Assembly: GCA_030265965.1 (NCBI GenBank)
Contig: JAJDHA010000001.1
Location: 65,394-129,393 of the forward strand
DNA: 64,000 nucleotides
Direction: 5' to 3'
From: Odoribacter sp. OttesenSCG-928-L07
GTDB lineage: Bacteria; Bacteroidota; Bacteroidia; Bacteroidales; BM520
Positions 62,750 to 64,000 of this stretch are shown in pieces. Position 1 is the stretch's first letter; every line of letters starts with the position of its first letter. The position numbers and the translations under genes are program-made. The notes below the pieces were generated by a model. That model saw only the letters and a program-made list of their open reading frames with translations. It was not told where the DNA came from and searched no databases.

Positions 62750-64000
62750 ATGTTATCAAGCGTAGGAAATATAATTTGCAGTAACATGTCGTATGATTAT
62801 CTCGGCGATGGCAATATGCATTATCGTACCGATGCTTTGATCGGTAAAAAAGAGTGGTTTAAATATGATAACCAAAACCGCCTTATTGGTTGGGAAACTA
62901 CAAGTTTAAACGCAGCAGAGCCAACATATCAAACAAGAATTTCATACACCGGCAACAGAGTTTCTTCCAAGGAAAACATTGGCAATTTTGTTTACGAAGA
63001 CTTCCCGCACCATGGAGTAAAAACCACAGGTGCAACTACAGTTGAAAATTATCCCATAGAAACCACCTACGATCACAACCGTATAGATGGTAGAGCACGA
63101 GTTTCTGCATTAACACGAAACAATAACGCCATAACATACACTTACGGCACCGCGGATGATTTGATAAAGAAAACCGAAATTGCCGGTAATAATTCAACAA
63201 CAACATATTATGCAGGTGGTGGTAAGTACGAACTGCGAATAGATAATACCACAAACTCAGAAACAAAGTTACTTTATCTTGGTTCAGGTGTTGTTAAATA
63301 CGATGCACCGGGAACAAACGACGATAAAATGTTGTATCTGCTAAAAGACCATTTGGGAAGCATAGTAAAAGTATTATCCATAAACACAAACAATAATGTA
63401 ACAGCATTAGAAAGTTTCAGCTACGATGTTTGGGGCAACAGGCGAAATGCAGCAAATTGGACTTCTTCAAATATTACTGCTCCACAATATATTTTTAAAG
63501 GTTTCACTGGGCACGAGCATATCGACAACTTTGGACTAATTCACATGAAAGGCAGGGTTTATGATCCTGCATTGGGAATGTTTCTTTCACCTGATCCTTA
63601 TGTACAGAACATGACTACAATGGGCTTTAATCGGTATCTGTATTGCATGGGGAACCCGTTGATGTATATGGATCCTGATGGTGAGTTTGTTACTTGGAGT
63701 ATTGGTAAAAATGGATTTAGTATCGGCTTAAACTTCACGCCAATTGGAGTTCCACTCGGTGCAGGACTTAATGCCGGATGGGGAAAAGGTGGATTTTCTC
63801 TAGGCGGATATGTTGAAGTTGGTTACAGAGCGGGTGGCAATGGATTTGGTTTAGGAGCCAGTGTTCAATTAAGTTACAACTATAATTTCAGATATAATAA
63901 CAGCAGTATTGCATTTACAGGTAATGTATATGCTTCGGCTGGACCTTTTGGAATTGGAGTAAGTGCCTCTGCATCATATAATTTTCTATATCAAAATTGG
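62750..64000 (+). CDS. RHS/YD-repeat-associated core protein, N-terminally short, 3' end outside window
   Basis: Not in the ORF track (no stop before the window end). Own translation from the ATG at 62750 (in-frame stop at 62699): YD-type repeats (YDYLGDGN, YDNQNRLIGW, YTYGTADDL), then the core end GFTGHEHIDNFGLIHMKGRVYDPALGMFLSPDPYVQNMTTMGFNRYLYCMGNPLMYMDPDGE, then a Gly-rich tail. Open for 417 codons to nt 64000. Confidence 0.85.
   Translation, partial: MLSSVGNIICSNMSYDYLGDGNMHYRTDALIGKKEWFKYDNQNRLIGWETTSLNAAEPTYQTRISYTGNRVSSKENIGNFVYEDFPHHGVKTTGATTVENYPIETTYDHNRIDGRARVSALTRNNNAITYTYGTADDLIKKTEIAGNNSTTTYYAGGGKYELRIDNTTNSETKLLYLGSGVVKYDAPGTNDDKMLYLLKDHLGSIVKVLSINTNNNVTALESFSYDVWGNRRNAANWTSSNITAPQYIFKGFTGHEHIDNFGLIHMKGRVYDPALGMFLSPDPYVQNMTTMGFNRYLYCMGNPLMYMDPDGEFVTWSIGKNGFSIGLNFTPIGVPLGAGLNAGWGKGGFSLGGYVEVGYRAGGNGFGLGASVQLSYNYNFRYNNSSIAFTGNVYASAGPFGIGVSASASYNFLYQNW

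Follow-up and report, generated by a model that had tools for sequence, protein, structure and literature searches.

The locus and its features

The window, i.e., the whole 64,000-nt stretch analysed here, corresponds to positions 65394 to 129393 of contig C1 in the assembly (G000) of a termite-gut-type Bacteroidales bacterium, whose closest named relatives are uncultured Bacteroidales MAGs. Its right-hand end lies inside an open reading frame (ORF) encoding a truncated Rhs protein. An earlier reading, made from the letters of the window alone (the sequence-only reading), had described a 417-codon frame running from the ATG at 62750 to the window edge; the ORF listing agrees with it, the frame being open at its 3' end where the window stops. 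Following the contig further, the frame is not interrupted, a possibility which that reading had raised, and gives an intact ORF of 638 aa (C1:128143-130059, + strand, stop at C1:130059). The toxin end and the cognate immunity gene that were to be looked for downstream are both present, the immunity gene starting 23 nt after the stop. The features of the locus are listed below, with positions in the window unless a contig or locus is named; C4 is a second contig of G000 and L087 is the locus in a second assembly of the same strain.

62540..62605, - strand: divergent OYE-SDR promoter module at the left edge of the inserted block, with the TATCTTTG -7 box at 62553-62560 and a four-unit heptamer array
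62606..62749, + strand: AT-rich leader, devoid of RHS-like coding and, on its + strand, of an exact TAnnTTTG
62750..62782, + strand: 11 codons without homology (MLSSVGNIICS), between the first ATG and the breakpoint (blastn against C4 begins at 62783)
62783..63685, + strand: truncated Rhs/YD shell and Rhs-associated core, ending with DPDGE (86% DNA identity to C4 nt 436-1340)
63686..64000 and on to C1:129516, + strand: start of the polymorphic C-terminal region, Gly-rich module (aa 316-458), predicted 10-strand beta-barrel
C1:129517-130056, + strand: HExxH domain (aa 459-638), C-terminal part of the 638-aa ORF
C1:130083-130871, + strand: immunity gene, 23 nt 3' of the toxin stop
C1:130995-131108: RHS remnant, 3' of the immunity gene
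L087:7313-7418 and 10256-10361 (C1:130854-130959): direct repeats of about 106 nt bracketing a second cassette
L087:10150-10250 (C4:2697-2757): perfect 26-nt inverted repeat with a loop of about 48 nt, just 3' of a 102-aa lipoprotein gene

A headless Rhs protein

The 638-aa protein is made of four parts: aa 1-11, which have no relatives; aa 12-312, the shell and core; aa ~316-458, a segment of about 145 aa rich in Gly, Ser, Asn, and aromatic residues; and aa 459-638 (180 aa), which carry the motif HEFYH. The core is recognized by the NCBIfam model TIGR03696 (Rhs_assc_core), whose search had been proposed, at aa 225-311 (E 9e-18; 64.6 bits for a cut-off of 32.5), and no Pfam family, RHS_repeat included, matches the window ORF. 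The core ends, as previously read, with DPDGE (encoded at 63671-63685) after about 310 aa, which provides the PxxxxDPxG-type boundary motif of Rhs/YD polymorphic toxins, and a variable C-terminal toxin with an adjacent immunity gene follows, as in these toxins. What is lacking is the long YD/RHS-repeat shell, of at least ~1,000 aa, headed by a delivery domain; only ~225 aa of Rhs/YD shell are found ahead of the core.

Upstream of the ORF, the organization is the one that had been described: a TAA in frame at 62699, 17 codons 5' of the ATG, within a 210-nt AT-rich gap beyond which lies the divergent OYE gene, starting at 62539. The absence of RHS-like coding in this gap holds when tblastn is used with the paralogous RHS protein, which matches nothing 5' of codon 12. 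A second in-frame ATG of the headless ORF is found at 62786. Translation of the 638-aa ORF may occur, the ATG being present and the frame fully open. A scan of genome contigs with the 638-aa protein retrieved no locus, nor did one with an alignment, which offered no conserved stretch.

Expression signals

The sequence-only reading could find no canonical promoter box, and indeed no exact match to the Bacteroidota -7 box (TAnnTTTG) exists on the + strand upstream of either the headless ORF or the immunity gene. In this genome, 45% of the long ORFs whose upstream region is free have such a box within 120 nt, about 10% being the chance expectation. Its absence is only a mild argument for silence, because 55% of comparable genes are also devoid of an exact match. 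A sigma-70 promoter scan was disregarded, Bacteroidota using a different consensus. On the minus strand, the OYE-SDR module (62553-62605) is composed of TGCAAAGATA (i.e., TAtcTTTG on the gene strand), a short AT spacer, and four AATTYTC-type heptamers; this promoter-like combination of box and heptamers is met at about 35 other places of the genome, ahead of many genes.

The HExxH domain

A HMMER search of 1.84 billion representative sequences (E <= 1e-3) recovered 22 proteins with the HExxH domain, which is C-terminal in all of them, for protein lengths ranging from 165 to 2,140 aa and with RHS_repeat, FG-GAP, TcdB_toxin_midN, and SpvB as the other domains of family members. In the trimmed alignment of these 22 members, N37, H112, E113, G123, E142, and A145 are invariant, the second His (H116) and D119 are nearly so, and the window protein keeps all the conserved residues. 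The combination of HExxH and a downstream metal-ligand or catalytic acidic residue, characteristic of zincin toxins, is present in the window protein. The family is rare in the order (three of the 301 genomes searched).

AlphaFold2, run on the 22-member alignment, predicts with a pLDDT of 91 an alpha/beta N-lobe and a helical C-lobe. No Pfam model matches the domain in the window protein (among the 22 members, Peptidase_M91 is touched by two, with an E value of 0.003, and SprT-like by one), a search of the PDB by sequence and profile gave nothing significant, and Foldseek against the PDB detected no relative of the toxin model (best E 0.9); neither a curated family model nor a solved zincin fold can thus be assigned. 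A STING-like fold, suggested by the best Foldseek matches, was rejected since E values of about 1 are meaningless. Because no Pfam model or PDB relative was found, it is by its motif alone that we call the putative toxin domain zincin-like. Such cassettes are of a well-known kind, although the type of this toxic tip is uncatalogued.

The Gly-rich module

The segment preceding the HExxH domain is found, at 38-62% identity, in seven other proteins, ahead of mutually unrelated tips, at least five of which can be counted. Its AlphaFold2 model, built from eight sequences (pLDDT 80), contains ten antiparallel strands. All the leading Foldseek matches of this model are outer-membrane barrels (E about 1e-4, TM about 0.5), i.e., the beta-domains of intimin and invasin, KdgM, NanC, and FapF, and the module is predicted to be an outer-membrane-type beta-barrel. 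It is conceivable, and we propose it only tentatively, that the module is a portable autotransporter-like entry device, in which a small barrel, inserted into the outer membrane of the victim, would thread any toxin fused behind it to the periplasm.

The immunity gene

The protein encoded 23 nt downstream has 262 aa and a Sec-type signal peptide, which is expected if the tip has a periplasmic target. Its homologues are about 225 aa long, all carry signal peptides, and end with KVKLIVE. At one locus (L022/L023), such a homologue lies directly behind a toxin of the same family (59% identity for the toxin and 42% for the immunity protein), and the DNA further downstream has nothing in common with our locus beyond the immunity gene. 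At another (L024-L026), the protein encoded ahead of two tandem immunity paralogues has 2,132 aa and the organization SpvB-FG-GAP-TcdB_midN-RHS, and its tip matches with an E value of 3e-12. The pairing of the toxin and immunity families is hence kept in three independent contexts, and it is this conservation that leads us to call the 262-aa protein an immunity protein. In our locus, the immunity ORF overruns KVKLIVE by 23 codons (C1:130800-130871; EEKSMTKREKRIFRKNKERKRKH), its last codons lying inside the repeated junction sequence.

A strain-specific insertion at a hotspot

In four genomes of the same genus (G001, G003, G005, and G007), a reductase-like gene (Steroid_dh) and the OYE gene are 15-263 nt apart on the same strand. 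This adjacency designates the cassette as a strain-specific insertion. Synteny ends at C1:127957 (about position 62564 of the window) and resumes at C1:131173, leaving 3,215 nt extra in G000; the insertion thus amounts to ~3.2 kb on this contig and to ~6.2 kb in the sister assembly. It splits a conserved reductase-OYE-SDR gene string. No terminal direct or inverted repeat, recombinase, or IS was detected in the insert, the short repeats present being AT-rich and at chance level. A different insert, of 2.2 kb, occupies the same reductase-OYE junction in a close relative, the isolate Th196P3bin138 (L027:1768-4000, WRLA01000027.1), where it encodes a flavodoxin, a protein ending in a T9SS-type tail, and two pairs of small genes resembling toxin-antitoxin systems. 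The occupation of one junction by different inserts in relatives indicates that this junction behaves as a hotspot.

A second cassette in the sister assembly

A protein identical to the 638-aa one is encoded on contig JAJDHC010000042.1 of GCA_030266045.1 (L087), the second assembly of the same strain. L087 and C1 are 100% identical along 7,418 nt, a stretch that includes rnc-fabF-acpP-SDR-OYE as well as the cassette and its immunity gene. L087 then contains 2,943 nt with no counterpart in C1, and rejoins C1 with one mismatch. This additional piece is contig C4, at 100% identity, and it immediately follows the immunity gene. Its products are a headless RHS protein of 772 aa, with a different tip of glycine-zipper type, and the partner of this tip, a 102-aa lipoprotein that weakly resembles SP0191-family lipoproteins. 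The tip (C4:1341-2355, L087:8794-9808) begins with glycine-zipper-like hydrophobic helices, and its end domain has no match in Pfam or NCBIfam. This position of C4 makes the locus a small solitary array of headless cassettes, and we rejected the idea that C4 represents the main full-length rhs gene, L087 showing it to be the second headless cassette of the same locus.

Contig C4 starts where the copies of the ~106-nt repeat diverge and ends in the loop of the inverted repeat. C1 therefore reflects either a genuine deletion variant, in which the second cassette was lost by recombination, or a path collapsed during assembly. The 24-nt core of the spacer has no exact match in the metagenome contigs scanned. 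A third unit is represented by its truncated start, the RHS remnant at C1:130995-131108.

Since L087 has the same 5' junction, identical to that of C1, no full-length N-terminus is restored by the second assembly, an outcome that the sequence-only reading had envisaged for a better assembly.

Relation to the other rhs copies

Only two Rhs cores exist in G000, that of the 638-aa ORF and that of contig C4 (2,757 nt). Their DNA aligns by blastn along 902 nt at 86% identity, in a match that starts abruptly at codon 12 (62783) and stops exactly at DPDGE. Such sharp edges of homology are a signature of orphan rhs tips. The differences between the two copies are distributed as 17, 14, and 85 at codon positions 1, 2, and 3, respectively, and this bias toward third positions implies that they diverged under purifying selection. 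Their longest identical runs (31, 29, and 26 nt) suffice in principle for homologous recombination. The GC content of the tip and the immunity gene is 24-32%, versus 37-41% for the core and the flanks. The break of homology at the tip, together with its lower GC content, is what C-terminal displacement and orphan modules classically look like (PMC5727410; see also PMC3482391). As in these modules, we find a 5'-truncated core fragment with DNA homology to another rhs copy of the genome.

The usual position of orphan modules, downstream of a full-length rhs gene, is not observed here, the upstream genes being OYE-SDR-acpP-fabF. No full-length rhs gene was found on the 133-kb contig or elsewhere in the G000 assembly, which is 74% complete. 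Repeats often stay unassembled. A SpvB, TcdB, or shell head was searched for by tblastn with the head and shell proteins of G005 and with the TcdB_toxin_midN model, which detects G005 as a positive control; neither G000 (74% complete) nor its closest relative G001 (97% complete) yielded one. PF25023 (TEN_YD-shell) missed even the G005 control and is uninformative on heads. In G001, the sole Rhs core belongs to a headless copy of 730 aa, starting within a few codons of the start of the 772-aa one. Orphan arrays behind full-length rhs genes are common in the order, and in G005, G022, and G032 full-length genes are followed by orphan units; the rhs gene of G005 is split into two ORFs.

Two further observations were made on rhs loci of relatives. 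In G018 (contig C16; L083:4891-7650), a solitary headless RHS protein of 646 aa, with a downstream partner of LRR type, lies near a transposase-like gene, and no full-length rhs gene occurs within 5 kb. In two genomes, genes located just 5' of rhs genes or orphan units (L082:763-1212 and L084:3725-4258) encode small secreted proteins that combine a single YD-type repeat with a T9SS-like tail at the C-terminus.

Interpretation and alternatives

The anatomy of the ORF, its truncation, its insertion, and the pairing of the toxin and immunity families are all directly visible. From them, we consider it probable (roughly 75%) that the ORF belongs to an orphan Rhs toxin-immunity cassette, which opens a short array of headless units stranded at a chromosomal hotspot. 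The sequence-only reading had already compared the ORF to an orphan rhs core-tip/toxin cassette in an unusual place, and the truncation, the intact frame, the immunity gene, and the edges of homology with C4 sustain this comparison.

Devoid of the N-terminal shell and of the delivery half, the 638-aa protein presumably cannot be delivered alone, so that the selectable function of the block would be that of the immunity gene, which would protect against neighbours carrying an armed version of the toxin. The toxin part, whose reserve value may also be selected, would represent a silent or weakly expressed stock, which recombination within the 0.9-kb core could rejoin to a full-length gene. In such an armed version, the tip would be cut at DPDG/E and the beta-barrel module would insert into the outer membrane of the target, passing the zincin-like domain to the periplasm. 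There, this domain would act and, in immune cells, the immunity protein with its signal peptide would neutralize it.

The intact state of the frames invites another explanation, in which the headless genes are working short-form subunits, comparable to TcC or to split Rhs proteins, that assemble in trans with a protein supplying the shell and head, which would make the ORF a genuine gene with its true N-terminus. Both ORFs begin with an ATG and are intact (638 aa here and 772 aa in L087), the two copies differ in a way that resembles purifying selection, the 730-aa copy of G001 starts within a few codons of the 772-aa one, the 646-aa copy of G018 is solitary, and G005 does have its rhs gene in two ORFs. 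However, neither G000 nor G001 (97% complete) yielded a partner providing a head or a shell, while the G005 control was detected. Moreover, the two cassettes start at different points of the shell, 145 aa apart, RHS-like coding extends 5' beyond the starting Met of the second cassette until a stop is reached, the breakpoint of the ORF falls mid-frame in its closest paralogue, where the frame is continuous, and no promoter box was found. We hold this explanation to be quite unlikely. The lack of a promoter motif upstream of either gene would also suit a cassette that is a recently stranded, functionless pseudogene remnant, whose toxin and immunity genes are unselected and intact only because the insertion is young. 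The immunity ORF running 23 codons past the family end into junction sequence, the third RHS piece, which is plainly a remnant, and the absence of the second cassette from C1, which fits with ongoing loss, point in the same direction. Against this, two long ORFs and two immunity genes have stayed intact at about 30% GC, all the catalytic-type residues are kept, and orphan immunity genes are reported to be protective in other gut Bacteroidales (PMC12247911). Such a remnant is an unlikely account of the locus.

Finally, the placement between housekeeping genes could be an assembly artefact, i.e., a chimeric join in a metagenome bin, as direct repeats of 106 nt are present, C4 breaks at the edge of a repeat and inside a palindrome, and the upstream spacer holds a genome-wide repeat. 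Yet both flanks are made of genes that are neighbours in four relatives, and an independent assembly has identical junctions, only the presence or absence of the second cassette being doubtful. A chimera is accordingly highly improbable.

Comparison with known systems and significance

Orphan rhs-CT/immunity modules produced by C-terminal displacement have been described in E. coli, Salmonella, Serratia, and Snodgrassella alvi (Jackson 2009 and Koskiniemi 2014, cited in PMC5727410). Our cassette shares with them the 5'-truncated core, the homology extending up to DPxG, the divergent tip of lower GC content, and the adjacent immunity gene. It differs from them by the lack of a full-length rhs gene upstream, the headless array lying between housekeeping genes, and by an unusually long piece of shell, about 225 aa before the core. 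Full-length carriers of the same toxin and immunity families (L024-L026) have the architecture of the fused TcB/TcC-like toxins of Bacteroidota (SpvB-FG-GAP-TcdB_midN-RHS), the 'TcdB/TcaC' trafficking class (PMC3482391); in contrast to them, the window ORF has no SpvB, FG-GAP, or TcdB_midN domain and lacks most of the shell.

Among the zincin-like domains of polymorphic toxins are HopH1/NleD (i.e., Peptidase_M91) and Tox-MPTase1-5 (PMC3482391). The tip resembles these domains in being a small alpha+beta domain with HExxH and a conserved Glu ~26 residues further, located at an RHS C-terminus and found partly in Bacteroidota; unlike them, the window protein has no match in Pfam, and none in the PDB by sequence or by fold. 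The orphan immunity islands of gut Bacteroidales (PMC12247911) reportedly also keep immunity genes without a working cognate weapon, in strain-variable hotspot islands. Our locus differs from them by its intact toxin genes, by being of an Rhs/Tc-like rather than a T6SS system, and by the lack of a linked recombinase. Orphan Rhs modules are textbook knowledge; what is unusual here is the solitary headless placement, the hotspot, and the architecture of the tip.

As an orphan Rhs cassette, the locus is ordinary and calls only for a correct annotation, with a truncated rhs gene, its immunity gene, and a second cassette on C4. It is of modest value as a clean natural example of headless toxin-immunity cassettes kept at an insertion hotspot although no delivery gene is seen in the genome, which points to immunity, and not attack, as the selected function. 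The tip is a more useful lead. It unites a rare HExxH domain without a Pfam model and a predicted outer-membrane-type barrel common to different toxins, a combination that suggests a route by which the Tc-like Rhs toxins of Bacteroidota may cross the outer membrane of their target.
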